From: Chloroflexota bacterium
GTDB lineage: Bacteria; Chloroflexota; UBA11872; UBA12225
NCBI GenBank assembly: GCA_009693165.1
Contig: SHXX01000002.1
Location: forward strand, 17,423-81,422
DNA: 64,000 nucleotides
Reading direction: 5' to 3'
Each line of letters opens with the position of its first letter. The first letter of the stretch is position 1. A model generated the notes under the pieces. The model had not been told where the DNA came from and ran no database searches. It worked only from the letters and a program-made list of their open reading frames with translations. Below are positions 2,740 through 62,094 of this stretch, piece by piece. Position numbers and translations under genes: made by a program.

Positions 2740-3618
<879 letters not shown>

Positions 3619-3699
3619 TCAATGACAGGGCCACCAGACACACCGAGAGGATCAAGGCAATTGCTGAACGTGGCGAGGAGGCAAGCCTTGTTGAAGCAC

Positions 3700-4224
3700 C
3701 TACCGGCCGAGTTCGTACCTCTGGAAGCGACGAACCCTGATGTTCTCTCCAGACTTGGCGATAGTCTCAGCGATCATCTGGCCAATCGTCCGCGAAGAAT
3801 CGCGAATGGAAACTTGGGCAAGTAGGGACGCCTGCCTCACATCCTCGGCAGTCAAGCCGTCGCGGGCAATCTCGTCTTCCGGGGCAGTCTCAATCGAGAT
3901 AAACCGCGGGCTCATCGCGACAATTTGCATCGCGATGTCGCGTGCAAGCGTCTTGAATTCGTCGGTTCGGGCAACGAAGTCGGTCTCGCAATTTACCTCG
4001 ACCATCGCACCGATGCGACCGCCCCCGTGGATGTACGTCTCCACGAGGCCCTGCCCGGTCTCACGTGAAGCCTTCTTGGCTGCCGACGCGAAACCCTTTT
4101 CCTTGAGGATGGAACGAGCAACTTCCGAATTGCCACCGGCGTCCTGAAGGGCACGCTTGCAATCCATGATGCCTGCGCCGGTCTCTTCGCGCAGAGCCTT
4201 CACCATTTCGGCCGTGATTTCCAT
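3700..4224 (-). CDS. tsf: translation elongation factor Ts, short form (174 aa)
   Basis: From the ATG at 4224: MEITAEMVKALREETGAGIMDCKRALQDAGGN ... VEVNCETDFVARTDEF ... ENIRVRRFQRYELG. The 248-aa track ORF (to 4446) adds an Arg/Pro-rich extension that overlaps the rpsB 3' end and is unlikely to be real. Confidence 0.9.
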   Translation of the reverse strand: MEITAEMVKALREETGAGIMDCKRALQDAGGNSEVARSILKEKGFASAAKKASRETGQGLVETYIHGGGRIGAMVEVNCETDFVARTDEFKTLARDIAMQIVAMSPRFISIETAPEDEIARDGLTAEDVRQASLLAQVSIRDSSRTIGQMIAETIAKSGENIRVRRFQRYELGR

Positions 4225-4369
4225 GTCCGTCTCGCCTGCCTGTTCGTCAGTGCACCCAGACACAACACCACACGGTATCGGCGGGCGCCATCGTTTTGTC
4301 CAAACGGCGCGGGGCAGACCCGTTGCACGAGCCACCCCGCGAGTTCCTGAGATTGGAATGCGGATTGGC

Positions 4370-5236
4370 TTATGCCTCGTCCTTGTCCTTGCGACGCCCA
4401 CCACGACCGACATAGGCCCGGCCATCCTCGTCGACTTCGTCGACAAAGGCCAAGGTGGTCTCGCCAGAAAGGACGCGTTCGAGTTCGACCTGGCTCAAGG
4501 TCTCCTCCTCGTCCTCAACTTCCTCGGCGCCCTCTTCCTTGGCAGACGCGTCGGCGAAGCCTCGACCTTCGATCACGGCATCGGCAATCCGTCCCGCGAG
4601 CAAGCGGATGGCACGGATTGCATCGTCGTTTGCCGGGATTGGATAGTCGATCTCATCGGGATTGCAGTTGGTGTCCACGAGCGCAACAATCGGAATGCCT
4701 AGTCGGCGCGCTTCCGCGACTGCAATGTGTTCCTTGCGCGTATCGACGATGAAGAGTGCTCCAGGCTGACGACGCAGGCCCTCGATCCCACCAAGGCGGT
4801 TCTGCAAACGCTCCATCTCGTCAGTGAGCTTGGTCGCTTCCTTCTTGGTCAGGACAGCGAACTCGCCACGCTCATGACGTGCCTTGAGTTCCTGCAGGCG
4901 TCGGATCCGCATTTGCATCGTGGTCTGGTTCGTCATCATGCCACCCAGCCACCGCTGGTTCACCCAGTACTGGCCAGAACGCTTGGCAGCTTCCTCAACC
5001 GCCTCCTGGGCCTGCTTCTTCGTACCCACGAACAGGACATTGTCACCACGGCGCGCGATGTCACGGATGAAGTTGAATGCTGAGGCAAGGCAAGTGACGG
5101 TCTGCTGAAGGTCGAGGATGTGAATGCCATTCCGCTCGGTGAAGATGAACGGCTTCATCTTGGGGTTCCACCGCTTGGTCTGGTGACCGAAGTGAACGCC
5201 CGCTTCCAGCAGCAGCTTCATTGAAACGACAGCCAT
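4370..5236 (-). CDS. rpsB: 30S ribosomal protein S2 with acidic C-terminal extension
   Basis: [32 protein letters not shown] ... IHILDLQQT ... [51 protein letters not shown]. Confidence 0.95.
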
Positions 5237-7302: not shown

Positions 7303-8657
7303 CGCGGACGCACCATCGCGGGTAGGAACGGTGAACGCGGGCGACGTCTCGCATGGGCGGGGACCGGCCCGCTGCGACGCAACGGCAGTTCCGACAGTCG
7401 CGCCACAAGGTCGTGCAGCGATTCAAGACTGTGCGAAGGCAGGAAATCGTCGAGGTACGGCAGAGCCGCCTGCATGCCTCGCGTCAGCGGCTTGTAGCTT
7501 GGCGAACCGAGCAATGGGTTGAGCCAGAACAACCGGAAGGACGTCCGTTGCAACCGGGCCATCTCCTTGCCGAGTTGCACCGGGTCACCCCGGTCCCACC
7601 CATCGGAAATGATCAGGACGATTGCACCACGCCCGAGGACACGACGCGCCCACTTCCGATTGAACGATGCAAGTGCCTCGCCGGTCCTCGTCCCGCCATG
7701 AAGGTCCTGGACATCCTCGTGGACCCGCGTCAGCGCATCCTCGACCCGACGGCGCTTGAGCGCGGGCGTGATCCGGGTGAGCCTGGTGGCGTATGCGAAT
7801 GTTTCCACCGTCGCACCTGTCCCGTGAGACACGGTATGGAGGAACTGCAGGAGTAGACGTGTATAGCGTTCCATGCTTCCTGAGACATCGCAAAGCAAAA
7901 CCATCGGCCTCGGACGCACCTTGAGTTCCCGGCGGGCAAACGTCAATGGTTCGCCACCCGTGGTGAGGCTTCGCCGAATGGTGCGCCGGAGATCCAAGGT
8001 GGCACCACGGGGAGCCGAGCGCATCCGGCGGGTAAGCCGCTGTGCCGACCGGGTGCGCAGGCGAGCCATCAACCGGCGCAGTACCGCAATCTCGGCATCA
8101 GTCAGGTGCGAGAAATCCCGCGTCCTCAGCGTCTCACTTGAGCTGTAGCTGGCCACCGCCGGTGGTGCGCTGCCATCGTCCGACTGCGATGCATCCGGCG
8201 GCTCGTCAAGTTCGAACACGAACGCTGCTGCCCCGGGAGTGGGCGAACGGTCGTCGTCTTCACCCTCTCCATCAGCCGCATGTTCCGCATCCGGGGCGCC
8301 GGGCACGCCCTCGCAATCCGAATCAGCCGCATCGGGTGGTGGCTCGACCGATTTCCGGCGCAGCGGCGGGAAGAAGCGTGCGAACAACCTGTCAAACGGG
8401 TCGCGTTGGTCAGGTCGGGAAAGGAGTGACGCGCGCGCCGCAAAGTACAGGTCATCGCGTCGCCCAAGGTCAATGAACCCAAGGGTTGTTGCAAGGGTCT
8501 GGACCCGTGTCGGATCTGCTGGTATCCCCGCGGCCCGCAAGGCCTGCCCGAAGCGCACAATGCGATGCAAAAACGCCCCGGCCACCTCGTTGGGCCGTTC
8601 GATTGCCTCACCGACAATGTCGGTCATCATCCGGCGTGACGCGCCAGTCCCGGTCAC
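7299..8657 (-). CDS. VWA domain protein, CoxE-like
   Basis: C-terminal von Willebrand A domain: PMVLLCDVSGSMERYTRLLLQFLH ... IVLIISDGWDRGD. There is an acidic low-complexity linker. The start codon overlaps the stop of the upstream MoxR ATPase gene by 4 nt. Confidence 0.8.
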   Translation of the reverse strand: MTGTGASRRMMTDIVGEAIERPNEVAGAFLHRIVRFGQALRAAGIPADPTRVQTLATTLGFIDLGRRDDLYFAARASLLSRPDQRDPFDRLFARFFPPLRRKSVEPPPDAADSDCEGVPGAPDAEHAADGEGEDDDRSPTPGAAAFVFELDEPPDASQSDDGSAPPAVASYSSSETLRTRDFSHLTDAEIAVLRRLMARLRTRSAQRLTRRMRSAPRGATLDLRRTIRRSLTTGGEPLTFARRELKVRPRPMVLLCDVSGSMERYTRLLLQFLHTVSHGTGATVETFAYATRLTRITPALKRRRVEDALTRVHEDVQDLHGGTRTGEALASFNRKWARRVLGRGAIVLIISDGWDRGDPVQLGKEMARLQRTSFRLFWLNPLLGSPSYKPLTRGMQAALPYLDDFLPSHSLESLHDLVARLSELPLRRSGPVPAHARRRPRSPFLPAMVRPR

Positions 8658-9676
8658 GGGCGGACATCACTGCCAGAAACCGCCTCGCCGACAAGGCGTG
8701 GATAGAGGTCACGCTGTACCCGGACCACGTCTTCCTGATGCTTCAGCAGCGTCCCAAGCGTATCCAGGACGATCGGGTTCTTGAGTTCCTCGATGCCCAG
8801 GGCAATCATCGCCGCCGTCCAGTCCAGGGTCTCCGCAACTCCCGGAACCTTCCACAGGTCTTCCTTGCGAAGTGCCTGGACAAACATTGCGATTTGCACC
8901 GAAAGCGGTTTGGGCGCATCAGGGATGCGCGCAGCGATGATCTCGAGTTCCTTCTGCACGGTCGGATACTCAATCCAGTGATAGAGACAGCGCCGCTTCA
9001 GCGCATCATGCAGTTCGCGCGTCCGGTTGGAGGTGATGATGACCATCGGAGGCACGGTCGCCTTGATCGTCCCGAGTTCCGGGATCGTGACCTGCCAGTC
9101 AGACAGCAGTTCGAGCAGGAATGCATCGAACTCGTCGTCGGCCCGGTCCAGTTCGTCGATCAGCAACACCGGAGGTATCTCCCGGGTCGCCTCGATCGCC
9201 TGGAGCAGGGGGCGCCGGACCAGGAACCGTGGGCCAAATAGGTCGTCGGCATCCATCGTGCCACCCGCACCGGCCTGCGCCTCGAGCATGCGAATGTGAA
9301 GCATCTGCCGACTGTAGTCCCACTCATAGACGGCATGGGCGATGTCCAGGCCCTCGTAGCACTGCAGACGGATCAGTGGCGCCCCCGTGATTGCGCTGAG
9401 CGCCTTGGCAATCTCGGTCTTGCCGACGCCGGCTTCCCCTTCAAGGAGCAACGGCTTCGGCAACGCCAGCGAGAGATAGAGCGCGGTCGCAAGCGAGCGG
9501 TCGGTGACGTAGCGCTGTCCTGCAAGCGCCTCGGCAACGCCGTCCACACCGTGGAGGCCATGAACCGCACGCTCACGGTGTGGAGCCTTCGCCGGGCCGT
9601 GCCCCGTTGCCAGAGGGTCCGCAGCTGGCGTGACCCCCACACCTGAATGCTTGTCGGATTGTCTTGATTCCGTCAT
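8654..9676 (-). CDS. MoxR-family AAA+ ATPase, CoxD-like
   Basis: Walker A LLLEGEAGVGKTEIAKAL, Walker B PVLLIDELDRADDEF, then ITSNRTRELHDALKRRCLYHWIEYP. I take the ATG at 9676 (MTESRQ...); the track ORF extends to 9817. Confidence 0.88.
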   Translation of the reverse strand: MTESRQSDKHSGVGVTPAADPLATGHGPAKAPHRERAVHGLHGVDGVAEALAGQRYVTDRSLATALYLSLALPKPLLLEGEAGVGKTEIAKALSAITGAPLIRLQCYEGLDIAHAVYEWDYSRQMLHIRMLEAQAGAGGTMDADDLFGPRFLVRRPLLQAIEATREIPPVLLIDELDRADDEFDAFLLELLSDWQVTIPELGTIKATVPPMVIITSNRTRELHDALKRRCLYHWIEYPTVQKELEIIAARIPDAPKPLSVQIAMFVQALRKEDLWKVPGVAETLDWTAAMIALGIEELKNPIVLDTLGTLLKHQEDVVRVQRDLYPRLVGEAVSGSDVRP

Positions 9677-9861
9677 GATGACGTAGGATACGCGAGAACA
9701 AAGGGCGACGGGCAGCGCTCTCCCTGGTGGTTTGCCGAACTCAAAGCAATGGGCTCCATGCGTGGCGTGATCGCCCGGGAGCCTCGCGCCCGGTCGGCCC
9801 TGAACCCGTACCTGCATGGAACCCGGACGACTTCTGGACCCCCCGAAGGGAGATACTCACC

Positions 9862-26638: not shown

Positions 26639-27829
26639 TCACTCATACGTCACTCGGCCCGTCTCGTGACGGCGGACATAATCCCAGTCGATTGTCACCC
26701 CGAGCCCGGGCCCCTGCGGTACCGGCACGTGTCCGTGGTTGTCGACCGCATCCAGGTCGTCAGAGTAATCCAGGTAGATCGGTGCCCGCGTGGTGCGGAC
26801 CGACGGATGGACGAGACCCAGTTCGTAGTAGTTCGTGTTCCTGATCGACGCCATGCAGTGTCGATGTTCCGGCGTCGGTGCATGGATCTCGACATCCATC
26901 CCGAGACCTTCAGCGGCGTGGGCAATCTTCATCAACCCGGTGACACCACCGTCATAGTGGGCATCCGCACGCAGGTAATCCGTACCTCCAGCGAGCGAGA
27001 AATCGATGTGAGACTCCACGTTCCGGACATGTTCGCCAAGCAGCAGTGGCGTCTTGATCAGTTCACGCATTCGCTTGTGAGCGAATGCCGATATGCCTCC
27101 ATCCTTGTAAGGATCCTCGTACCAGAAGAACTCGGCCTCGTCACACGCCCGGCCAACGCGGAGAGCATCCGCCCAGGTGTCGTACTCACACGCCGGGTCA
27201 AGCATCAGGTCCATCGTGTCGCCGACGGCACGGCGCGCCGCAAGCACGTTCGCGACCTCCCGGCGGATGTATTCACGATCGGCGGGATCATTTCCCCATC
27301 CGTGAATTTTGAACGCGGGGTATCCCATTGCTCGGCACTGAAGGGCGAAATCGGCGAACGCTTCCGGTGACGAAAGGCCTCCGGACGCGACATGGTCACC
27401 ATGCAACGTGCTTGCGTACGACGGTAGCGTCCGCTTCCACCCGCCAAGCAGTTCGAAAAGCGGTGCTCCATACGCCTTTCCGGCAATGTCCCACAGGGCG
27501 ATGTCCACCGCACTCAGCCCGAACTTGTCGACCTTCCGCAATGCCCGCTTCATGTCGTTGTACAAGCGTTCACGCTCGAGCGGGTTCTTGCCGATCAGGT
27601 ACGACGCCACCTGACCAACCTGCGCGTAGGTGTTGCGGTCCCCTCCGGCGTGTTCACCCGTGACCCCCTCGTTGGTCTCGATGGTGAGGACATGCCCGCG
27701 GGCCTGACGCTTCGCACCGGGCAGATAGACCGAATTGAACCCGTTGTAATCGCTTCCCAAGTCCACCAGCGTGTAGCCATACTCGATCACCGTGATCCGG
27801 GTGATTGCCAATCCGCCTCTCATCAACAT
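26639..27829 (-). CDS. enolase-superfamily enzyme (mandelate racemase/muconate lactonizing family, sugar-acid dehydratase-like)
   Basis: LSAVDIALWDIAGKAYGAPLFELLGG ... DLMLDPACEY ... FFWYEDPY ... LLLGEHV gives the D/E/E metal-ligand spacing. AAGGAGGG precedes ATG 27829/27823. The 186-aa N-terminal extension in the track ORF (to 28387) is rejected because it runs antisense through dop. Confidence 0.85.
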   Translation of the reverse strand: MLMRGGLAITRITVIEYGYTLVDLGSDYNGFNSVYLPGAKRQARGHVLTIETNEGVTGEHAGGDRNTYAQVGQVASYLIGKNPLERERLYNDMKRALRKVDKFGLSAVDIALWDIAGKAYGAPLFELLGGWKRTLPSYASTLHGDHVASGGLSSPEAFADFALQCRAMGYPAFKIHGWGNDPADREYIRREVANVLAARRAVGDTMDLMLDPACEYDTWADALRVGRACDEAEFFWYEDPYKDGGISAFAHKRMRELIKTPLLLGEHVRNVESHIDFSLAGGTDYLRADAHYDGGVTGLMKIAHAAEGLGMDVEIHAPTPEHRHCMASIRNTNYYELGLVHPSVRTTRAPIYLDYSDDLDAVDNHGHVPVPQGPGLGVTIDWDYVRRHETGRVTYE

Positions 27830-27942: not shown

Positions 27943-27951
27943 GTGCTAGAC
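27943..27951 (+). promoter_or_regulatory. candidate extended -10 element (TGcTAGACT) placed to give a leaderless dop transcript
   Basis: TAGACT lies at 27946-27951 with TG at 27943-27944. The A of the dop ATG (27959) is 8 nt downstream of the last -10 base, leaving a 7-nt gap. No Shine-Dalgarno-like sequence sits between them, and no good -35 is present. This is inference only. Confidence 0.25.
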
Positions 27952-27958
27952 TGACTTC

Positions 27959-29539
27959 ATGCGTCGACCCGTAGGTATCGAAACTGAATACGGCCTGAAC
28001 TGCGAGGGGTTCTCCGCAACCAGTCCTGGGGCACCAACCGGGCCAACCGATGGCCCGCCCGGGGTTGACTTCGGTTACGAGTGCGCCAGCATCGTCCGTG
28101 CGGTGCCATTCCCCGGGGCGTTCCGCGGTTGGGATTACCGGGGTGAGGATCCGTACCAGGATCTCCGCGGCATGCGTGCCGACCAGCTTGCGCGCGATCC
28201 AAATGACCTTGACGGACCCGACGAGCGAAGCCGGAAACTCAGCCGGGATGAGCTGCTCGCCAACACGGTCCTTCTCAATGGGGCACGCTATTACAACGAC
28301 CACAACCATCCCGAATACTGCACCGAGGCGACCCCAGACCTCTTCGAACTCGTGGCCCAGGACAGGGCAGGCGAGCGGATCGTCCATGCCAGCGAGACGG
28401 CGCGGAACGAAGCACTAGCCCGGGAAGTGGGACCGGCGACGCGGGTTCGGCTTCTGAAGAACAACACCGACTATCACGGGCGTAGCTACGGCATGCACGA
28501 GAACTACCTCTGTGCGCGTTCGACGTCGCTCGACGCACTGGTCAGGGGGATGACCCCCCACCTCGTCACTCGCCAACTTTACGCCGGCGCCGGAAAGGTC
28601 GGCGTCGAGACCTCGGGCGCCCCTATCGCCCCCGGTTTCCAGATGAGCCAACGGGCCGACTTCTTCGAGGAACGGATCGGTATCAACACCACCGCGAAGC
28701 GCCCCATCTTCAACACACGTGACGAACCACACGCGAGCTCGACCCGGTATCGGCGGCTGCATTGCATCGCCGGTGACGCGAACCGCTCGGAGTGGGCAAC
28801 CGCAATGAAGGTCGGGACCACCGCACTGGTCCTTGACCTCATTGAGGATGGGTGGACAGCTGAGTTCGAAATTGCGGATCCGGTCAAGGCCATCAAGGAC
28901 ATATCCCGGGACACCACCATGACCGCAACCGTCCCGATGACCGCGGGACGTCCGATGACCGCAGTCGCTATTCAGCACTTGATCCTCCACGCGTGCCGTG
29001 CCTCGTTTGCCGGGCGTGATCCGGAAACCGATTGGGTGCTTTCGCAGTGGGCAGAGGCGCTTGATGCCCTCGGATCAGACCCGGAAAGACTCGCTACACG
29101 GGTCGACTGGATTATCAAGCGGTCACTCTTCGTCCAGATCGGAACAACTGGCGACCCGCGCACCTGGGGCGATGCCCGCCTTCGTCGATTGGACATGGCC
29201 TATCACATGATCGACCCGCGGGTCAGCCTCTTCGAAACCCTCCGCAAGCAGGGACGTGTCATCAATCTTGTTGATCAAGATCGTCTCGACACGTGCGCCC
29301 AGACGCCACCAGCGGGAACGCGAGGCGCCATCCGCGGCGCACTTCTGGCCCGGTTCGGACCCCAGATCCGGAAACTCGAGTGGGACTCGGTCACGTTTGA
29401 TGTGGGATCCAAGGAATGGCGCCTCGACCTCGAGGACATAACAGGTCCCGTCATCGACCGGGTCATCGAACTCATCGACCGCTCCCCCGATCTCTCAAGC
29501 CTCGTCGCTACCATGAAGGGAGGATCACGTGACGCCTGA
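27959..29539 (+). CDS. dop: Pup deamidase/depupylase-type member of the Pup-ligase family (Dop-like)
   Basis: MRRPVGIETEYG ... GWDYRGEDPYQDLRG ... LLNGARYYNDHNHPEY ... LLKNNTDYHGRSYGMHENYL ... LVTRQLYAGAGKVG ... RPIFNTRDEPHASSTRYRRLHCIAGDANRSEW. About 95 aa separate GIETEYG from NGARYY, and a WDY motif is present. Both match my recollection of the Dop-specific insertion. Confidence 0.85.
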   Translation: MRRPVGIETEYGLNCEGFSATSPGAPTGPTDGPPGVDFGYECASIVRAVPFPGAFRGWDYRGEDPYQDLRGMRADQLARDPNDLDGPDERSRKLSRDELLANTVLLNGARYYNDHNHPEYCTEATPDLFELVAQDRAGERIVHASETARNEALAREVGPATRVRLLKNNTDYHGRSYGMHENYLCARSTSLDALVRGMTPHLVTRQLYAGAGKVGVETSGAPIAPGFQMSQRADFFEERIGINTTAKRPIFNTRDEPHASSTRYRRLHCIAGDANRSEWATAMKVGTTALVLDLIEDGWTAEFEIADPVKAIKDISRDTTMTATVPMTAGRPMTAVAIQHLILHACRASFAGRDPETDWVLSQWAEALDALGSDPERLATRVDWIIKRSLFVQIGTTGDPRTWGDARLRRLDMAYHMIDPRVSLFETLRKQGRVINLVDQDRLDTCAQTPPAGTRGAIRGALLARFGPQIRKLEWDSVTFDVGSKEWRLDLEDITGPVIDRVIELIDRSPDLSSLVATMKGGSRDA

Positions 29540-29729
29540 CACCGTGATCGCGATTGCACCCGAAGCCCCAACCAAACCCGCCGAAACACCCACTGAAGCA
29601 CCATCACGCCCATCATCCGCGCCGGGCGAGACCGATACTGAAAAGTCGTCCGATACCGACCTTGACGACGAGATCCAGCGCATCATCCGGGAAATTCCCG
29701 ACCCGACCCCACAGCCAGGCGGAGAGTAG
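29529..29729 (+). CDS. pup: prokaryotic ubiquitin-like protein (Pup-like), C-terminal GGE
   Basis: 66-aa acidic, Pro/Thr/Glu-rich ORF: MTPDTVIAIAPEAPTKPAETPTEAPSRPSSAPGETDTEKSSDTDLDDEIQRIIREIPDPTPQPGGE. GTG start with GGGAGGA 5 nt upstream. It overlaps the dop 3' end by 11 nt, lies exactly between the two ligase-family paralogs, and ends GGE then TAG. Confidence 0.75.
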   Translation: MTPDTVIAIAPEAPTKPAETPTEAPSRPSSAPGETDTEKSSDTDLDDEIQRIIREIPDPTPQPGGE

Positions 29730-29802
29730 CCTCACATCAAGGCGTGAACGGCGGATGACCGGGTAGCGAAGATTCCGGTGAGGGTGCGGGGACACTGAGC
29801 GA

Positions 29803-31356
29803 ATGGAAAATGCACTCTTTGGCACTGAAACCGAGTACGCAGCCGCCGGGAACATGAGCCCGACCGAGGTCGCCTACCGGATCAAGGATGCCATCTTCGG
29901 TTCCCGGAAGTACGGGCTGATCGAGCCTGCGCCTCGCGAATGGGGTGAGAGCCCCGGCAATGGTGGGTTCCTTTTCAATGGGGGCCGGATGTACCTCGAT
30001 TCCGGCCACCTTGAATACGCAACCCCGGAATGCCGGACGCTGGATGACCTGATCGCCGCCGAACATGCCGGGGACCGCATCCTTCTGTCGATGATTGCCG
30101 AACTCCAACTCAAGGGTGAGGCGTTCTTCATCAAGAACAACACCGACCACTTCGGCAACACCTATGGCTACCACGAGAACTACTGCATCCGGTCAAGTCC
30201 GCGAACTCGCGACTTCGTGGAAAGCGTCCTTCCTTTCCTGGTGACCCGCCAGATCTTTGCTGGTGCCGGCATGTACAAGCCAGCCTCGACCCGTCCTCGC
30301 GCATCCCGCTTCCCTGCCCTTCCGGGAACGGTGGAAGGGTCGCCGCCACCACCGTTCCAAATCAGTCAGCGGGCACCTTTCACGTCAGTGGACGTCAGTC
30401 ACCGCGTCCGGTTCGGGGGTCGGCCGATCCTGAACCTGCGCGATGAATCCCACGCCGGGCGGAGATACAGCCGTCTGCACAACATCATTGGTGACGCGAA
30501 CAGGTCCGAGTTCGCCACCAAACTCAAGATTGGGACGATGGCACTTGTCGCCCAACTTCTGGACGAGGGATGGACATCCGAGGTCGAGATCGAGCTTGAG
30601 GATCCGGTGGCGTCCCTGAAGAAGATCTCGGGCGAGCCAACTGGCACATGGATGGTCAAGCTCGCGAACGGCAGCGAGATGTCCGCGATCGATATCCAGC
30701 GCGTCTACCTCCACGAGGCAACCCGACGATATCTCGGTCGCGATGAGGACACCATCTGGGTCCTTCGCCAATGGGCGTCAGTGCTGAACACACTGGAGAC
30801 CGACCGCTTCCGCCTGGACGGCTACCTCGATTGGGTCACAAAGTTCCTCCAGTTGAAATCCTTTGCCGCAAAGGCAGCCCGCGGGTGGGAGGAACCAGAC
30901 CTCATCAAGCTGGATCTTGCGTACCACCACATCGACCCGTCGGTCAGCCTGTTCAACCTGCTGCAGCGCCAAGGGAAACTCCAGCCGATCGTTGCGCCGG
31001 AGCGCGCCGAAGCAATGATGGTCAATCCGCCCGCTGGATCGCGGGCCAACGCCCGTGGACGGATCGTGCAGGCGATGTCAACTGCTCGCGCCGACAGTGA
31101 CATCAACTGGGCACTCATTTCGCGTCGCCTAGGTGAGCGGGCCAGTTACGGAGACGAACGGACCATGGTGTACGAATACGTCGACACTTATCTCGATGTT
31201 CAGGGCGCCGATGCTTGGAAGCTGATCCCGTACGTGATCGACTGGGGCGCGATCGCCTACAAGAACCATATTCTGGAACTTGGCGACCCATTCAGTGAGT
31301 ACGCAGCCGAAGCCTCCGGGTATTCAGCGACCGTCCCCGACTGGGTCGGAGCCTGA
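29803..31356 (+). CDS. pafA: Pup--protein ligase-type member of the Pup-ligase family (PafA-like)
   Basis: MENALFGTETEYA ... FLFNGGRMYLDSGHLEYATPEC ... FIKNNTDHFGNTYGYHENYC ... LVTRQIFAGAGM ... RPILNLRDESHAGRRYSRLHNIIGDANRSEF. The short (~46 aa) spacing between GTETEY and NGGRMY is PafA-like. At 517 aa it is longer than the ~450 aa I recall for PafA. Confidence 0.85.
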   Translation: MENALFGTETEYAAAGNMSPTEVAYRIKDAIFGSRKYGLIEPAPREWGESPGNGGFLFNGGRMYLDSGHLEYATPECRTLDDLIAAEHAGDRILLSMIAELQLKGEAFFIKNNTDHFGNTYGYHENYCIRSSPRTRDFVESVLPFLVTRQIFAGAGMYKPASTRPRASRFPALPGTVEGSPPPPFQISQRAPFTSVDVSHRVRFGGRPILNLRDESHAGRRYSRLHNIIGDANRSEFATKLKIGTMALVAQLLDEGWTSEVEIELEDPVASLKKISGEPTGTWMVKLANGSEMSAIDIQRVYLHEATRRYLGRDEDTIWVLRQWASVLNTLETDRFRLDGYLDWVTKFLQLKSFAAKAARGWEEPDLIKLDLAYHHIDPSVSLFNLLQRQGKLQPIVAPERAEAMMVNPPAGSRANARGRIVQAMSTARADSDINWALISRRLGERASYGDERTMVYEYVDTYLDVQGADAWKLIPYVIDWGAIAYKNHILELGDPFSEYAAEASGYSATVPDWVGA

Positions 31357-32643
31357 TCACATCTCGTCCGAGGGGTCGGTCCGTATCACCCCTGCGTGTT
31401 CCAGCTGCTTTATCGCCACCGTGTCGTAGCCGAGTTCACCCAGAATTCCTTCGGTGTGCTCGCCGTGGCGCGGCGGACGACCGGGAGGTGCGCTTGCCGC
31501 ACGCGAATGCGTTTCTCCCGTTCGCCACGGTTGCCCGGGTATCCGCACGGCGCCTGCCGGATGCTCAATTTCGTGAAGCAGTCCGCGTTCAGCCACATAC
31601 CGGCTAGATGCCACCTGTCCGATATCACTGATGGGTCCACAGGGAATGCCGGCATCGCGGAAGCGGGACACCCATTCTGCCACCGTGCGCGTCGCCAGCA
31701 CGGAGGCAAGATCAGTGGTAAGTGTGTCCCGGTTGCGCACGCGCAGACCGTTGTCTGCATAGCGTGGGTCCGAAGCCAGATCTGGCCGCTCAATGACCGC
31801 AGTGAACGATAGCCAAAGGCGTTCATTCGGGACCGCGAGCGTGAAGTCCCCGTCAGAAGCACCGAACGCCTGGTACGGCACGATGAAGGGGAAGCGATTT
31901 CCGGACCGCCCCGGAACCCGGCCACTCACCTGGTAACTCACCAAGTGGTAACCCATCAGCGAGACCTGCCCGTCAAAGAGCGCCACGTCAAGAAACGTGC
32001 CCTCGGCCATCGCGTCCCCTGAAGCACGCTTCCGCTCCCGGCCAAGCAAGGCACCAACGATGGCCACCGCAGCATTCGTGCCTGCCAAGATATCGGCCTC
32101 GGCAACGCCCGCCTTCATTGGGCCACCATCCGGATCTCCGGTCACACTCATCAGGCCTCCGGTGCCTTGCACAATCAGGTCATAACCCGGCTCCTGGGAT
32201 CCAGACCCATCCTGACCGTACGCCGAGATTGACGCATACACCACCCCCGGGTTGATCGCCTTCACGCTTGCGTAATCCAGGCCAAGTCTCGCGACAACAC
32301 CAGGCCGGAAATTCTCAACTACGACGTCAGCCTGTTTCGCAAGTTCCAGACAGATCCGAAGCCCGTCAGGGTTCTTGAGATCGACTGCCACGCTTCGCCG
32401 ACTTCGGTTCACTGAAAGGAAATATGCGCTGTCGACACCAAGGAACGGTGGCCCCCACAAACGGGTCTCATCGCCACCGCGGACATCCTCGACCTTGATG
32501 ACATCGGCACCCATGTCCGCAAGCAAGCCAGTGCAGTGCGGACCGGCGAGTGCCCGTGACAAGTCGAGGACCCGGTATCCCGCGAGTGGTCTTCCATGGT
32601 CCACGGCGGTTTGGGCACCTGACCCGCTTCCGTCTCTTGTCAT
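31357..32643 (-). CDS. CaiB/BaiF family (class III) CoA-transferase
   Basis: PLAGYRVLDLSRALAGPHCTGLLADMGADVIKVE ... GGDETR ... VVENFRPGVVARLGLDY ... ISAYGQDG. Confidence 0.88.
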   Translation of the reverse strand: MTRDGSGSGAQTAVDHGRPLAGYRVLDLSRALAGPHCTGLLADMGADVIKVEDVRGGDETRLWGPPFLGVDSAYFLSVNRSRRSVAVDLKNPDGLRICLELAKQADVVVENFRPGVVARLGLDYASVKAINPGVVYASISAYGQDGSGSQEPGYDLIVQGTGGLMSVTGDPDGGPMKAGVAEADILAGTNAAVAIVGALLGRERKRASGDAMAEGTFLDVALFDGQVSLMGYHLVSYQVSGRVPGRSGNRFPFIVPYQAFGASDGDFTLAVPNERLWLSFTAVIERPDLASDPRYADNGLRVRNRDTLTTDLASVLATRTVAEWVSRFRDAGIPCGPISDIGQVASSRYVAERGLLHEIEHPAGAVRIPGQPWRTGETHSRAASAPPGRPPRHGEHTEGILGELGYDTVAIKQLEHAGVIRTDPSDEM

Positions 32644-33999: not shown

Positions 34000-34494
34000 A
34001 TGCCACAGATGGACGACGACGCAACCAACTCCCTGACAACCGTGCGGTCACTTACCGGACAGCGGGTCCGCGCCGAGGCGTTCATCCTGTGCGATGGCGT
34101 TCAGGTCCACGACGGCAAACTCTTCATCCTCGGCGGTGGCTGGGACCGCCTACTCGTTCGCGCATTTCCGGTCGAGCAGACCTTCGCACTCGCGATAAAG
34201 CTTTCGGTGCCTGCAAGCGAGGCGTATCGTCCGATGGCCATGACCCTTGAAGTGCGGGATGAGGAGGGCGCCATTGCGGGTGGACAGGTCCACTCTTCAA
34301 CGATCGAAGTCAGTCGACCGCTGGGCTACGCCCCCCATGAGGATGTGCCGTGTTTCTTCCCGCTTCACGTGGGGCTTGTCGTGCGTCGACCAGAACGTCT
34401 GACATTCGTGCTGTTGATCGATGGAGATCCTATCGCACGTACCAGCATCCGCGTCATTGCACACGCCGACGTAGGCCAACGTCCTCCCAGTTGA
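34000..34494 (+). CDS. hypothetical protein (no recognised family)
   Basis: 164-aa ORF with balanced composition: AFILCDGVQVHDGKLFILGGGWDRLL ... FALAIKLSVP ... LTFVLLIDGDPIARTSIRVI, suggesting a beta-rich fold. GGAAGGGA abuts the first ATG, so the ATG at 34009 may be the real start. Confidence 0.5.
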   Translation: MPQMDDDATNSLTTVRSLTGQRVRAEAFILCDGVQVHDGKLFILGGGWDRLLVRAFPVEQTFALAIKLSVPASEAYRPMAMTLEVRDEEGAIAGGQVHSSTIEVSRPLGYAPHEDVPCFFPLHVGLVVRRPERLTFVLLIDGDPIARTSIRVIAHADVGQRPPS

Positions 34495-51612: not shown

Positions 51613-53532
51613 TCACTCGCGACCGCCTGTCAGATCGGCGAACGCCCGCGATCCCGGCAACCGCAGGTCGCCATTGCGACGCGTGACCTTCTCTCGATCC
51701 AGATACTCAAGAAATGGCAGCACATATTTTCGACTCGTGCCGATCAGGTCGCGCGCCTCGGCAACGGTGATTTCCCCACGGACCCGGAAGTGCCGGCCGA
51801 CGCGTGTGACCATCTCCTCGAACGCATTCCTGTCGAAATACACGTCATCACTGACCTTCACCAGCGCACCGGTGACGACCAGTGCACCAACAACCTCTTC
51901 GAGAGAAGGCGCTCCGCGAACCTCCACGATCAGAGCAGCCAGTTCTGTCAACGTCGGCGGCGCCAACGGCACCCGCCCGATTGCCGTGGTGATAGCTTCG
52001 GAAACCAGAAGCGCAGCGCCAGTGAACCGAACCAGATGCCCAGCCGAACGGACACCCGTCCCGCCGTCAACCACGGCGTCAAGCGAAGCCATCCGCGTGA
52101 GCGCGCCTGCAAAGACCCGTGTGGGCAACCCGAGGCGGTTCTTGAGCTCCTCTTTCGGCATGAACGGCCTCAAGGGAAACTCGCTGTGGTAGGCATCGAG
52201 CGCCGTCACAAGCCGGTCACTGACCCGGTTCCATCCACCCCGTGTGTAGGTCAGTCCTCCAACCGGGACGATCTCACCTTGCGCCAGAAGCGCCTCAATC
52301 AACGGTGGGACAGTGGCGGGCATCAGTCCACATGCCGCGATCAGGTCGCCACTCGAAGCAGGTTCAATGCGGGCAAGGGTTCCAACCACCACATCTTCGG
52401 GAGACCCGTCGGCAAGCACCTCAAGGGCGGCGACCAAACCAGCCTGGTGCCGGCGGCGCACCGCGGGATGCGCGTCAATAATCCGCCCGCCGCCCAATGT
52501 CTCGCCGGGTGACAACGCACGGATGATGAAGTCATCATCGCGGGCAACCGCAACCGGGTGCGCAAGGCGCAGGTGGACCCAACCAGTCGCCCCCTCCTCG
52601 ATCCGGTCCCCCTCCAGGATATGGACGCGCGCGATCGTCTCCGACGTACCGGTATGAAACCCGACAAGCGCACCGTGTGGGAGCGGTCGTGACACCCCGG
52701 CAAGGATCCGGACCCGAACGTCGACGGCAAGCGTCGGACGCATGACCCCCGGTAGCGACACGACCGCACCCCGTCCAAGATCATCGATTGCGACACCCGC
52801 CAGGTTGATTGCAACCCGTCTTCCTGGACGAGCAACACCCACCTTGGTCCGATGGCTTTGGAGACCACGGGCACGGGTCCGAAGCCCATCCGGAAGCACT
52901 TCAAGCTCCTGTCCAACTTCAAGGCTGCCATCGCGGAGTGTCCCAGTCACGATCGTGCCAAAACCCGCCAAGGAGAACACCCGGTCGACCGGCATCCGGG
53001 GACGACCAAGGTCGCGACGCACTGGCGCGTCATCGAGTACGGCCACCAGCGCGGTCACGAGTTCCGGCAGGCCGCTGCCCGCCAACGCCGACACCGGCAC
53101 GATTGACGCACCCGACAGCGACGTCCCGCGCAGTGTCTCGCGCACCTCCTCCGCGACGAAAGCCCGCCATTCATCGTCCACCAAGTCTGCCTTTGTCAGC
53201 GCGACGACGCCGTGCTTCACCCCGATCAAGTCCAGAATGTCGAGGTGTTCGCGGGTCTGGGGCATGATGCCCTCATCGGCAGCGATGACGAGCAGCGCCG
53301 CATCTATTCCACCCACCCCAGCCAGCATGTTCTTGATGAACCGTTCGTGCCCGGGGACGTCGACGATGCTGATCTCACGACCGTCAGGTAGCCGCAACCA
53401 GGCAAACCCGAGGTCGATCGTCATGCCACGCGCCTTCTCTTCGCGCAGGCGGTCTGGATCTATCCCGGTCAGTGTCTCGATGAGTGTCGATTTACCGTGG
53501 TCAACGTGACCGGCAGTCCCGATCGTAAGCAT
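51613..53532 (-). CDS. selB: selenocysteine-specific translation elongation factor
   Basis: From the ATG at 53532: MLTIGTAGHVDHGKSTLIETLTG ... DVPGHERFIKNM ... ALTKADL (G1, G3, G4), EF-Tu-like domains II and III, then a long winged-helix C-terminus ending ITVAEARDLIGTSRKYVLPFLEYLDREKVTRR. Confidence 0.9.
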   Translation of the reverse strand: MLTIGTAGHVDHGKSTLIETLTGIDPDRLREEKARGMTIDLGFAWLRLPDGREISIVDVPGHERFIKNMLAGVGGIDAALLVIAADEGIMPQTREHLDILDLIGVKHGVVALTKADLVDDEWRAFVAEEVRETLRGTSLSGASIVPVSALAGSGLPELVTALVAVLDDAPVRRDLGRPRMPVDRVFSLAGFGTIVTGTLRDGSLEVGQELEVLPDGLRTRARGLQSHRTKVGVARPGRRVAINLAGVAIDDLGRGAVVSLPGVMRPTLAVDVRVRILAGVSRPLPHGALVGFHTGTSETIARVHILEGDRIEEGATGWVHLRLAHPVAVARDDDFIIRALSPGETLGGGRIIDAHPAVRRRHQAGLVAALEVLADGSPEDVVVGTLARIEPASSGDLIAACGLMPATVPPLIEALLAQGEIVPVGGLTYTRGGWNRVSDRLVTALDAYHSEFPLRPFMPKEELKNRLGLPTRVFAGALTRMASLDAVVDGGTGVRSAGHLVRFTGAALLVSEAITTAIGRVPLAPPTLTELAALIVEVRGAPSLEEVVGALVVTGALVKVSDDVYFDRNAFEEMVTRVGRHFRVRGEITVAEARDLIGTSRKYVLPFLEYLDREKVTRRNGDLRLPGSRAFADLTGGRE

Positions 53533-53651
53533 GCCATTCCTCGCGATTGCAGCGGGCCTGCCGGTGTAGGGGAACCAGATCGGACGCCAGTGGGTAGCCA
53601 ACCCCAGAATACCGGGTCACGCGAGGAAACTGGGCACCCCACTGTGGTCCA

Positions 53652-59074: not shown

Positions 59075-59196
59075 ATCACTGAAGTGTAGCGAAGCCTCTA
59101 TAAGGCATCTACGATGTGGCGTGTAATCGAAGCGGGGATAGATGAGGAGCGATGGATCAAAAGGGGAGGCGGCCCACTAGCTCCCGGAGTCAATTG

Positions 59197-60327
59197 TCAG
59201 TACTCGGCAACCGTTCGGCGCTTCACGAACTCCCAGTCAATTTCGGCGCCCCATCCAGGCAGCATCGAGGGTTCGAGGTGTCCGTCCTTTGCGTCCGGCG
59301 CATTCACGATGCCAATTTCCTTGGCACCTCCTGGAAAGTGCGCAAAATACTCGTACGCATAGGTATTGGGAATGGCGCACTGCAACTGGACATGGACATG
59401 CCCACCCAGTCCGCCAACTGCATTCATCTCGACATTGCTTCCATGCAGTTCGGCAAAGTGCGCAAGCTTGACCAGACTGGTGGTGCCGTTTCGCGCGTTG
59501 ACACGAATCAGGTCAGTCGCGCCGGCAATCAACCATTCCGCGCACAGTTTCATGTCGTACATCAGCATCTCGGTTGCCATCACCGGCATCTGGGTCAGGG
59601 CCGCGCACAGCCGCTGATACTGGTGGAGTTCCTGTTCATAGAATGGTTCTTCAAGCCACAGGAAACCAAGATCCTCCATGACGTGCCCTACCCGGATCGC
59701 TTCCTCAAGCGAGTACGAGCAGACCGGGTCATTCATGAGGACATACTCATCCCCAAGGGCACGACGGAGTTCGCCGAACAGCGCGATGTTCTTGGTCGCA
59801 CCCTGGTAGTTGTGGAACTTGAACGCCTCGATGCCCCACCGCTGTCCCGCATCGTCCAGAAGCGCCATGTACGTCGACGCGGTCCCGTCGCCGTCACCCC
59901 CTGTGAGGTATGCCGGTATGCGGTCGCGCACCTGTCCAAGCAACTGGCATACAGGGAGGCCAGCAACCTTCCCGGCGATATCCCAGAGACAGTTGTCGAA
60001 GTTCCCGAACCAACCAGGCGTCTGGTAGACCCAGCGGGTGCCATGATGAAGCCGCTGGTAGAGCTCCTCGCGACGCATTGGATCGGCACCGATCACTTGG
60101 GCCCGCAGGACCTCCATGACGGCCGGCGAAGGCGCACCGGTGCAAATGCCTTCAATGCCTTCGTCGGTGCGCACACGCAGGTACGTCTCGGTTTCGGCCT
60201 GGTCACTCCCGAGGTTCCGGTGCGTGTACCGAAGTCGGAACTTGTCCGGGACCTGGATGATCTCGAGCCGGCGCGCCTTCGCCGGCACCTCAACGACAAT
60301 AGCCTTCACCTCGACGATGCGCATCAT
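59197..60327 (-). CDS. enolase-superfamily enzyme (mandelate racemase/muconate lactonizing family)
   Basis: MMRIVEVKAIVVEVP ... FDNCLWDIAGKVAGLPVCQLLG ... VLMNDPVCSY ... FLWLEEPF ... VMATEML. It is a paralog of the 26639-27829 gene. ATG at 60327 or 60324. Confidence 0.85.
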   Translation of the reverse strand: MMRIVEVKAIVVEVPAKARRLEIIQVPDKFRLRYTHRNLGSDQAETETYLRVRTDEGIEGICTGAPSPAVMEVLRAQVIGADPMRREELYQRLHHGTRWVYQTPGWFGNFDNCLWDIAGKVAGLPVCQLLGQVRDRIPAYLTGGDGDGTASTYMALLDDAGQRWGIEAFKFHNYQGATKNIALFGELRRALGDEYVLMNDPVCSYSLEEAIRVGHVMEDLGFLWLEEPFYEQELHQYQRLCAALTQMPVMATEMLMYDMKLCAEWLIAGATDLIRVNARNGTTSLVKLAHFAELHGSNVEMNAVGGLGGHVHVQLQCAIPNTYAYEYFAHFPGGAKEIGIVNAPDAKDGHLEPSMLPGWGAEIDWEFVKRRTVAEY

Positions 60328-60369
60328 TCTTCTCCAGGGCGTTTGCAAGCCAGCGAAGCTTGGTATGAA

Positions 60370-61452
60370 TCAGGCGGGGCGGGGGGCCACCCGCCCACCA
60401 CGGGCAACCGCGACCACTTCCGCCATGATCCCGAGCGCAATCTCCTCGGGTGCACGTCCACCAAGGTCAAGCCCGACTGGTCCGCGGATGCGGCTGACGT
60501 CATCCTCCGTGAACCCCTGCTTGATGAGCCGGGCCCGACGGATTTCCTGTGTCTTCCGGCTACCAAGGCATCCGATGTACGGCGCCTTGGACCGCAGCGC
60601 CGCCGCGAGTGCCGGTTCATCCAACTTCGGGTCGTGAGAAAGGACAACCACGAAAGAGGTTTCGTCAAGAACTACTTGACCGGTCGCAATCGCATCCTGA
60701 GGCCACGCCCGCAAGAGTTGCCCCGCGTGACCAAGGCGTTCATCGGTCGCGAAGATAGTCCGGGGATCGACCACGCACGTCTCGAAACCAACCTCATGCG
60801 CAAACCTGACCAAGGACTGGGCAACGTGGACCGCCCCGAAGACAATCAACCGGGGTCGACCCGGCCACGCATGAAGGAAGACCCGGTACGGCGTGCCGTC
60901 CGCCGCAACAAGGTCCTGCACACCCGACACTGCGCGCTGCCCCTCGGCGATCATTTGCCGTGCCCGCCAGACCGCACTCGTCGCCACCTCGTCGGGCGGC
61001 ATGGCGCCCCCGGTCGCGACCGGCACGACTGCCGCATCATCGACCACCTGCCTCGACCCCGACGCACCACTGATCCACGTCATGGATACTGACGGGACCT
61101 TCCGGTTCCAGGCATCGGACAGTGCCATCACCGCCACCCTGTCGAGCCGTTCCACCCAGATCTCGATCGCCCCTCCACACGTGAGACCCGCATCCCACGC
61201 CGTCTCATCCTCGATGCCAATGCCAAGGAGCACGGGAATGCCGGTTTCGATCACCTGAGCGGCATGGTAGGCAACATCTCCCTCTATGCACCCTCCACTT
61301 ACCGATCCAGCGAGTTCGCCCCGCACTGAAACGGCCAGCATCGCGCCTTCCGCACGAGGCGCCGACCGGTACACATTCACCACCGTGGCAAGCGCACCAA
61401 ACGCGTCACCGCGGTCAAACCAGGACCCCAACGCATCCCACACCAGTTGCAT
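60370..61452 (-). CDS. XdhC family molybdoenzyme maturation protein
   Basis: From the ATG at 61452: MQLVWDALGSWFDRGDAFGALATVVNVYRSAPRAEGAMLAVSVRGELAGSVSGGCIEGDV ... RLIVFGAVHVAQSLVRFAHEVGFETCVVDPR. No YHS domain is present. The track ORF extends to 61626. Confidence 0.8.
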   Translation of the reverse strand: MQLVWDALGSWFDRGDAFGALATVVNVYRSAPRAEGAMLAVSVRGELAGSVSGGCIEGDVAYHAAQVIETGIPVLLGIGIEDETAWDAGLTCGGAIEIWVERLDRVAVMALSDAWNRKVPSVSMTWISGASGSRQVVDDAAVVPVATGGAMPPDEVATSAVWRARQMIAEGQRAVSGVQDLVAADGTPYRVFLHAWPGRPRLIVFGAVHVAQSLVRFAHEVGFETCVVDPRTIFATDERLGHAGQLLRAWPQDAIATGQVVLDETSFVVVLSHDPKLDEPALAAALRSKAPYIGCLGSRKTQEIRRARLIKQGFTEDDVSRIRGPVGLDLGGRAPEEIALGIMAEVVAVARGGRVAPRPA

Positions 61453-61575
61453 GCTACTCTCCGTCCAATCAGTCAAACGACCGGGACCGGCATTGTGGGA
61501 TGCCATGTTGTGTCGCAGGCTGATTGCTGCACCCATGATAGGCGCAATCCGATAGCGTTGGGGGGGGCTGTTAGT

Positions 61576-62094
61576 ATGGAAGAGACTCACGTCGGCATCT
61601 CGGTTGAGGTCAACGGGCGTCCACACCGGTCAACCGTTGAGCCTCGCACACTCCTGGTTGACTACCTCCGTGATGACTTGGGCCTGACGGGGACGCATAT
61701 TGGTTGCGACACCGGACAGTGCGGAGCCTGCACGGTCATCGTCGACGGGCAATCCGTCAAGTCATGCATGGTCCTGGCCGTCCAGGCCGATGGTGCGCAC
61801 GTCCGGACGGTCGAGGGTCTCGCCCAGGATGGGCGCTACCACGCTGTCCAGCAGGGCTTCTGGGAAAAGCATGGCCTCCAGTGTGGGTTCTGCACCCCGG
61901 GGTTCATGATGCAGAGCGTCCAGATCCTCGAGGACAATCCGGACCCGTCTGACCAAGAAATCCGCGATGCCCTTGAGGGGAACCTGTGCCGGTGCACCGG
62001 CTACCAGAACATCGTGGAAGCCGTGAAGGCAGCCGGAGCGACGATCCGCAGCGGTGCCGAAACGATGGCTCTAGGGACCGGGGTCGGCGCCTAG
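61576..62094 (+). CDS. [2Fe-2S]-binding small subunit of a xanthine dehydrogenase/CODH-family enzyme
   Basis: From the ATG at 61576: [17 protein letters not shown] ... [23 protein letters not shown] ... [10 protein letters not shown] ... GNLCRCTGY. Confidence 0.9.

Follow-up and report, generated by a model that had tools for sequence, protein, structure and literature searches.

A Dop-type, tag, and PafA-type gene module of Chloroflexota as a putative pupylation-type system uncoupled from the proteasome locus

Introduction

Most descriptions of pupylation present it as a path to the proteasome in actinobacteria (and Nitrospirae). The actinobacterial locus encodes Mpa/ARC, Dop, Pup, PrcB, PrcA, and PafA, and in its canonical form the ARC gene lies directly upstream of dop. 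Here we describe a cassette of three genes, in which the gene for a 66-amino-acid (aa) tag protein stands between the genes for a Dop-type and a PafA-type enzyme. It lies in a 64,000-nucleotide (nt) stretch of DNA from a Chloroflexota bacterium (GenBank assembly GCA_009693165.1, contig SHXX01000002.1, positions 17,423 to 81,422 of the forward strand), the whole of which is called the window below. A scan of one genome per species with the Dop-type protein as the query yielded 80 related loci, which were examined together with 10 kb on either side.

The cassette shares with the actinobacterial Pup-proteasome system the same two enzyme families, the same ancient duplication, and the Dop-loop in the hydrolase. 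Its tag resembles Pup in being disordered, in its size (66 aa versus 64 aa in Mycobacterium tuberculosis), and in a GGQ or GGE end that alternates between species; the chemistry is presumably the same. Unlike its actinobacterial counterpart, the Chloroflexota locus contains neither ARC nor 20S genes. Its enzymes are 36–42% identical to the Dop and PafA proteins of solved structure and score under the NCBI equivalog cut-offs, and its tag has neither the second helix of Pup nor the ...FVRAYVQKGGQ tail.

For every pupylation-competent organism surveyed, the order of genes in the locus has been called rigidly conserved, and proteasome-less corynebacteria still keep ARC there (PMC3511204). The Corynebacterium locus, arc-dop-pup-pafA, resembles the Chloroflexota module in that the ligase gene comes immediately after the tag gene and proteasome genes do not separate the two. 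It is also the closest functional precedent, being a case of pupylation with a non-proteasomal outcome (PMC3511204). In contrast to the corynebacteria, neither the window nor any of the 80 related loci yielded an ARC, and the tag and enzymes of Corynebacterium belong to different subfamilies.

UBact-type loci, which are conjugation-proteasome loci of Gram-negative phyla, were compared by the Pfam labels and sequences of three examples (L081–L083). There, too, the gene immediately 3' of the Dop-like one encodes the tag, which has a G[E/Q] end, and both enzymes are the closest relatives of the Chloroflexota ones. These loci differ in that an ARC gene precedes the Dop-like gene and a pair of proteasome genes separates the tag gene from the PafA-like one; the Chloroflexota module has neither. 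The UBact tail reads ...RYRQR[ST]G[E/Q], whereas the Chloroflexota tail reads ...RIIREIPDPTPQPGG[E/Q], and the Chloroflexota tag misses the UBact model PF20513.

A 2020 survey of Dop and PafA listed Actinobacteria, Nitrospirae, NC10, Armatimonadetes, Verrucomicrobia, Nitrospinae, Firmicutes, Proteobacteria, and Planctomycetes, with Chloroflexi unlisted (PMC7947786). Our literature search returned nothing that links pupylation with Chloroflexi or Chloroflexota. We consider it reasonably probable that the cassette works as a pupylation-type module for the reversible tagging of lysines, with a third kind of bacterial tag, and that this module is uncoupled from the proteasome locus and vertically inherited.

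Results

Three co-oriented genes form a probable protein-tagging cassette

The + strand of the window carries three co-oriented genes, which encode a 526-aa homologue of the deamidase/depupylase Dop (positions 27959–29539), the 66-aa tag (29529–29729), and a 517-aa homologue of the ligase PafA (29803–31356). Both large proteins match the Pfam Pup_ligase family (PF03136) over their full length and above its gathering score of 25 bits. The E values, both far beyond chance, are 1.4e-139 for the Dop-type protein (466 bits) and 1.1e-108 for the PafA-type protein (364 bits). The tag gene is an open reading frame (ORF) with a GG[E/Q] end that is kept in related loci. The three-gene cassette is real, and its products would be a remover, a small tag, and an attacher.

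The 3' end of the Dop-type gene and the start of the tag gene overlap by 11 nt. Within the 3' end of the Dop-type gene, a Shine-Dalgarno-like GGGAGGA was read from the sequence (29518–29524, + strand), spaced 4 nt from the GTG start codon of the tag gene. Together, the overlap and this site suggest that the tag gene is translationally coupled to the Dop-type gene. A scan of the DNA for promoters and terminators revealed nothing exceeding the shuffled expectation, and the PADLOC models of anti-phage defence gave no match.

The first enzyme is of the Dop type

In the first enzyme, 94 aa separate GIETEYG (residues 6–12) from NGARYY (107–112), and a WDY motif is present at W58-D59-Y60. The GhExE motif spans G6–E10, the catalytic Asp is D114 in YYNDHNHPEY, and NTRDEPHA is found at residues 252–259. 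Diagnostic positions for Dop and PafA were taken from Hecht et al. 2020 (PMC7947786). The Dop functional type was defined by a Dop-loop of ~40 aa between the GhExE and NGAR strands, a D-H-x-HPEY strand without the PafA insertion, and an alpha-loop E..G[LI].TT.KRP. All of these were found in the first enzyme: its RGWDYRGEDPYQDLRG aligns to the Dop-loop RWDFEEENPLRDARG of solved Dop, and it carries NDHN-HPEY and the Dop-like alpha-loop FFEERIGINTTAKRP. Against solved structures it scored 323–333 bits with Dop, with the Dop-loop aligned, and 228 bits with PafA; against the NCBIfam models it scored 416.8 bits with Dop and 347 bits with PafA. Its AlphaFold2 model reached a predicted local distance difference test (pLDDT) score of 85.4. 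In the tree described below, it sits on the Dop side. By these sequence features, the first enzyme is a Dop-type protein and an orthologue of Dop.

The second enzyme is of the PafA type

The second enzyme has only 46 aa between GTETEY (residues 7–12) and NGGRMY (59–64), leaving no Dop-loop. Its catalytic Asp is D66 in YLDSGHLEY; a lineage-specific insert covers residues 159–184, and NLRDESHA is found at 211–218. The PafA functional type was defined by the absence of a Dop-loop, by L-D-.-G... and ATxEC around the catalytic Asp, and by a position on the PafA side of the duplication, all of which apply to this protein. Comparison of its YLDSG-HLEYATPEC with YLDVGSHPEYATAEC of PafA showed PafA-type residues around the catalytic Asp. 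Its profile scores were a near tie in NCBIfam (PafA 282.9 bits, Dop 275.4 bits), and it was about equidistant from the solved structures of Dop (215 bits) and PafA (202 bits). Predicted secondary structure of the alpha-loop was dropped as a discriminator, because it was similar in both window proteins; in the model of the second enzyme (pLDDT 89.3), the loop was predicted as a 3-residue helical turn only. Judged by its motifs and its place in the tree, the second enzyme is PafA-type and an orthologue of PafA.

Both enzymes are closest to those of UBact-type loci

We built a bootstrapped neighbour-joining tree from 445 alignment columns with 300 replicates, in which the three canonical sequences were transcribed from printed alignments to solved structures. 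The Chloroflexota Dop-type and PafA-type proteins each formed a clade with 100% bootstrap, and the actinobacterial enzymes fell outside both. The split between Dop and PafA was recovered with 84%, whereas a duplication within Chloroflexota received 0%. The Dop-type clade grouped with UBact-type Dop-like proteins (80%), and the PafA-type clade grouped with UBact-type PafA-like proteins (88%; 87.7% before rounding). Across the alignments of both families, the catalytic motifs GhExE, the catalytic Asp, KNNTD..HENY, N.RDE, and RLH.I.GDAN were invariant.

The nearest homologues outside Chloroflexota were found in Latescibacterota (L081 and L082) and in Fimbriimonadales of the Armatimonadota (L083). 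Their loci have the UBact-type order ARC - Dop-like - UBact - proteasome - proteasome - PafA-like. Identity to these relatives was 40–47% for the Dop-like and 43% for the PafA-like proteins. The first enzyme has YNDH.-HPEY in common with the UBact-type Dop-like proteins. The second enzyme shares with the PafA-like proteins Y.D.G-HLEYATPEC, N.RDEPLA, the same C-terminal domain, and the lack of the two alpha-loop threonines. Because the odd motifs of the second enzyme recur in these PafA-like proteins, the UBact-type loci resolve its placement. On sequence grounds, the cassette enzymes are closer to UBact-type than to actinobacterial systems.

An earlier note on this DNA, made from the sequence alone, had read the first paralog as Dop-type from a spacing of about 95 aa with a WDY motif and the second as PafA-type from a spacing of about 46 aa. 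Both readings hold, with spacings of 94 and 46 aa, Dop-structure scores for the first protein, no Dop-loop in the second, and each on its expected side of the tree. Two of the kinds of check that it proposed, a profile search and a phylogeny, returned the Pup_ligase matches of both large ORFs and the placement of both paralogs next to UBact-type rather than actinobacterial proteins.

One Dop-type protein labelled Gammaproteobacteria (P0082) fell within the Chloroflexota clade. The closest database copy of the tag (P0121; 95% identity, partial) is labelled "Proteobacteria bacterium." Both labels are probably binning errors.

The small tag protein forms a family of its own

The tag ORF has a GTG start and ends in PQPGGE, with the tail IPDPTPQPGGE. 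With 12 Pro, 9 Thr, 8 Glu, and 7 Asp among its 66 residues, the protein is disorder-prone. It contains an N-proximal motif EAPTKPAETPTE and a short helix-prone segment DLDDEIQRIIRE. An ORF ending in GG[E/Q] was present between the enzyme genes in 75 of the 76 loci with both enzyme genes; 46 of these ORFs end in Glu and 29 in Gln. The tail of the family, [DE]L[DG]E.[IV][KR]RIIRE[IV]PDPTPQPGG[E/Q], is near-invariant, while enzyme identities drop to 44–45%. Over the last 16 tag codons, mean pairwise differences were 0.063 at the first codon position, 0.009 at the second, and 0.521 at the third, showing that selection acts on the translated protein and not on the DNA. The tag ORF is a genuine gene and evolves under strong purifying selection.

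In its position between dop and pafA genes, its small size, its proneness to disorder, and its C-terminal Gly-Gly-Gln/Glu, the ORF has the features by which we defined the functional type of Pup. The earlier note had called it a 66-aa pup ending in GGE. The size, the end, and the presumed role as a tag stand, but it is no recognisable Pup and fails the Pup models. Neither the Pup model PF05639 nor the UBact model PF20513 matched the window tag or 37 aligned family members at E<=1, and TIGR03687 (Pup) left the window tag unmatched at the same threshold. No Pup chain was found when the family profile was compared with solved structures (E<=10), and profile-profile alignment (hhalign) of the family with a UBact sequence gave a probability of 0.5%. 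With an end of PGG[E/Q] instead of R[ST]G[E/Q], the protein also failed the UBact definition. Residues 40–55 of the tag align with residues 34–49 of M. tuberculosis Pup, the first helix in the region that binds the enzymes, but without significance; the alignment with a UBact sequence was weaker still. Homology to Pup or UBact is not claimed, as only such weak, non-significant short-helix alignments were obtained.

In public databases, the family comprised 116 clusters, none with a Pfam domain. All named clusters are "hypothetical protein," and all are from Chloroflexi or Chloroflexota except one partial "Proteobacteria" entry. A search of 1.84 billion proteins with the family profile returned 25 representatives, all with the same tail or truncated versions. 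By sequence, the tag is a tight family separate from Pup and UBact.

The N-terminal half of the tag is variable apart from a looser motif, E[AT]P[TV]KP.E[AT]P, at residues 11–22 (window 29559–29594). The Pro following the Lys is invariant, and the Lys itself is kept in most members. This motif could be a partner-binding site or a site of chain formation.

The Gln-ended tags, encoded by 29 of 75 relatives, would require deamidation prior to ligation. This would imply a functional deamidase in the clade and argues, indirectly, that the Dop-type hydrolase is active there. The same features bear on an alternative in which no protein is tagged and both glutamine-synthetase-fold enzymes modify the small peptide or couple it to a small amine, much as peptide natural products or cofactors are matured. 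That the tag matches no known tag model would suit this explanation. Yet the two enzymes are clearly orthologous to PafA and Dop and not to other members of the superfamily, and the GG[E/Q] end, the Glu/Gln alternation, and the gene order are hallmarks of pupylation. Moreover, the flanks of the 80 loci show no conserved transporter, protease, or further tailoring gene beside the module. We regard peptide maturation as very improbable.

ARC and proteasome genes are absent from the window and the related loci

A six-frame Walker-A scan of the window revealed no ARC; apart from two ABC ATPases, it found only a MoxR-like AAA ATPase (8654–9817, - strand; Pfam AAA_5, AAA_3), which is the sole non-ABC Walker-A protein there. 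Pfam labels were assigned throughout 17.9–39.5 kb and elsewhere to ORFs of ~180–300 aa and to longer unassigned ORFs; they included neither PF00227 nor ARC OB domains. Real ARC, PrcB, PrcA, and UBact proteins from UBact-type loci, the last represented by two sequences, were used as tblastn queries at E<=0.01. They gave 0 matches in the window and the 80 loci (~1.5 Mb). Thus, 0 of 80 related loci had an ARC or proteasome gene in the 10 kb flanking the module. The Dop-PafA gap of at most 961 nt leaves no room for two proteasome genes of ~0.8 kb each, the sizes in L081. The arrangement that defines a Pup-proteasome locus, in which ARC precedes dop and prcB-prcA separate the tag gene from pafA, was found neither in the window nor in any of the 80 loci. 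The earlier note had seen no ARC/Mpa or proteasome genes in the 64 kb, and the Walker-A scan, the Pfam labels, and tblastn agree with it.

A serious, though less likely, alternative is an ordinary Pup- or UBact-proteasome system with ARC and 20S genes elsewhere on the chromosome, in which the tag still delivers proteins to the proteasome. The nearest relatives of both enzymes sit in loci with ARC and two proteasome genes, and the examined DNA covers 64 kb of the source genome and, for each related locus, a surrounding region of 20 kb. Some actinobacterial proteasome regulators are also encoded outside the locus (PMC6466877). On the other side stands the rigid order of pupylation loci, in which even corynebacteria keep ARC (PMC3511204), versus none of 80 loci with ARC or 20S genes. 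Chloroflexi are reported to contain no proteasome (Fuchs et al. 2017; PMC5666114). The tag itself speaks against delivery as well: its helix-prone stretch has only ~14 residues. Mpa binds a helix of ~30 residues in Pup.

The module is widespread in Chloroflexota

All 80 related loci were from Chloroflexota. The closest were found in lake metagenome-assembled genomes (MAGs) labelled TK10 or UBA2235, with 88–96% identity, and all named close homologues were proteins of Chloroflexi or Chloroflexota MAGs. An identical copy of the window protein was present on contigs of the ENA metagenome assembly ERZ1305449. The order Dop-type then PafA-type was detected in 76 of the 80 loci, the other four being cut by contig ends. 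Across these 76 loci, enzyme identities ranged from 95% down to 44%, and the gap between the two enzyme genes ranged from 101 to 961 nt. Clustering of the flanking ORFs showed every neighbour family to be confined to 24 or fewer of the 80 loci, and the annotated ones included neither an ARC nor a proteasome subunit. Annotated neighbour families were ordinary and depended on the subclade (transporters, UbiD, dehydrogenases, PFK, AccA, CysRS, GyrA, metallophosphatase, nitrilase-type hydrolase).

The same order in 76 of 76 informative loci indicates an old, vertically kept module and not a recent acquisition. Most likely, judging from these sequences, the cassette is an old module inherited vertically within a large Chloroflexota clade. 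We also considered a recent horizontal transfer of the cassette, as an island, from an actinobacterium or Nitrospira into a single genome; horizontal transfer is the general explanation for non-actinobacterial pupylation genes (PMC7947786). This is extremely unlikely here. In addition to the shared order over identities of 95% to 44%, the Chloroflexota enzymes form clades with 100% bootstrap that exclude the actinobacterial enzymes. The guanine-cytosine content (GC) is even over the cassette (0.605–0.625), with no anomaly relative to the window, and the flanking genes are housekeeping genes that vary by subclade. Of the two suggestions made earlier, that the host does not look classically actinobacterial and that the module may have been acquired horizontally, the former fits the taxonomy of the source and of all 80 loci, while the latter is contradicted by these data.

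Several further genes were observed at related loci. A 318-aa gene directly 3' of the PafA-type gene (L044:13291-14244 and homologues) was considered as a partner and rejected, since it looks like subclade synteny. It is present in 17 loci of one subclade, lies on the same strand as the PafA-type gene, and has no Pfam match and only faint glycoside-hydrolase-like NCBIfam matches. In one locus (L016:11806-12384), two small ORFs between the tag and PafA-type genes look HicA/HicB toxin-antitoxin-like by eye. Four other loci (L054, L062, L066, L077) have inserts at this place, giving Dop-PafA gaps of ~780–910 nt, and these inserts contain no long ORF.

One ATPase, a 708-aa class I Clp/Hsp100 protein that lacks the usual N-terminal domain (L076:4081-6207), has homologues in 17 of the 80 loci. 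It lies within 10 kb of the module, not adjacent to it, in two gene orders: upstream (e.g., L060–L063, L070, L072–L078) or downstream (L031, L047, L049, L052, L054, L059, L062, L069). Its scores with ClpB (687 bits) and ClpA (615 bits) are both under the cut-offs, and there is no such gene in the window. The ATPase may be a candidate for reading the tag, or its presence may reflect synteny alone.

Surroundings of the cassette in the window

Upstream of the cassette, a divergent gene encodes a mandelate racemase/muconate lactonizing enzyme of the enolase superfamily (26639–27823, - strand; Pfam MR_MLE_N, MR_MLE_C). Downstream, a convergent gene encodes a family III CoA-transferase (31357–32643, - strand; Pfam CoA_transf_3, 390 bits), the end of which abuts the stop of the PafA-type gene. 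Both neighbours had been named from the sequence beforehand, and the Pfam matches bear them out. They lie outside the module and are kept in the closest relatives only. The same is true of a DUF6941 gene (34000–34494, + strand; 164 aa, no NCBIfam match), which follows the CoA-transferase gene and an alcohol dehydrogenase gene.

Exact-sequence look-ups of two other proteins encoded in the window returned no record. Farther away, the Pfam scan located an rpsB-tsf-pyrH cluster that includes the EF-Ts gene (2740–5236, - strand). The selenocysteine-specific elongation factor SelB is encoded at 51613–53601 (- strand), so the organism probably makes selenoproteins. A 646-aa ORF without a Pfam match (59152–61092, + strand) overlaps opposite-strand ORFs at 59197–60348 and 60370–61626, and the latter may be the real genes instead.

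Discussion

By homology with PafA and Dop, the tagging chemistry may be pictured as follows. The tag would be a 66-aa disordered protein. With ATP, the PafA-type enzyme would phosphorylate the side-chain carboxylate of its C-terminal Glu and then join the tag to the side chains of target lysines through an isopeptide bond. The Dop-type enzyme would take the tag off again and, in relatives with Gln-ended tags, would first deamidate the Gln to Glu. The module presumably descends from a complete ARC-Dop-tag-PrcB-PrcA-PafA locus, from which the degradation genes would have been lost or separated, and in which the tag tail would have been remodelled. Tagged proteins are probably not sent to the proteasome. 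Instead, as in corynebacteria without a proteasome, another factor may recognise them or the tag may regulate them directly. A proteasome-independent outcome is favoured because the locus is devoid of ARC and 20S genes throughout the clade and because chloroflexi are reported to be proteasome-less (PMC5666114).

Several points weigh against a working lysine-tagging module of this kind. At 416.8 bits, the first enzyme is under the curated cut-off of the Dop equivalog model TIGR03688 (492.3 bits), and it is thus a divergent Dop-type protein and no equivalog by the NCBI rule. The second enzyme is far under the curated cut-offs of both the Dop and the PafA models (551.3 bits for TIGR03686, PafA). 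It also failed the canonical motif test: FTSVDVSHRVRFGGRP and NLRDESHA take the place of the alpha-loop H.WEG.SSATTRSRP and of NTRDEPHA, and the two alpha-loop threonines conserved in canonical Dop and PafA (PMC7947786) are missing. Given these replacements, its activity as a ligase is an assumption. Comparison of structures did not help to discriminate between Dop and PafA and was dropped, as the AlphaFold2 model of the second enzyme matches the structures of both alike (template modelling score ~0.75, E 1e-33). The tag has no significant similarity to Pup or UBact, its role being deduced from where its gene lies, how large it is, its composition, and its GG[E/Q] terminus. Finally, ARC or 20S genes may be encoded elsewhere in the carrier genomes, beyond the 64 kb and the flanks of the loci.

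A more far-reaching version of the proteasome-independent module is that the Chloroflexota clade uses a third, unnamed tag family, which the PafA-type enzyme attaches and the Dop-type enzyme removes, in genomes that have neither ARC/Mpa nor a proteasome, so that the tag has another reader or is purely regulatory. We hold this version tentatively, at somewhat short of even chances.

A minimal module of tag, ligase, and hydrolase is the rule across many Chloroflexota genomes, with no degradation machinery in the locus. It may serve as a natural minimal system for studying tagging without the proteasome. There is likely an annotation gap, since the tag is invisible to current models, and the family could enter domain databases. 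Proteomic searches would need a different mass: the last Arg of the tag is R54, so trypsin would leave on the modified Lys a remnant computed as EIPDPTPQPGGE (+1217.556 Da) rather than the GGE remnant (+243.09 Da) used for Pup, and a standard pupylome search would miss the Chloroflexota tag. If the more far-reaching version, with neither ARC/Mpa nor a proteasome in these genomes, proves true, this would be the first pupylation-type system without any proteasomal component.

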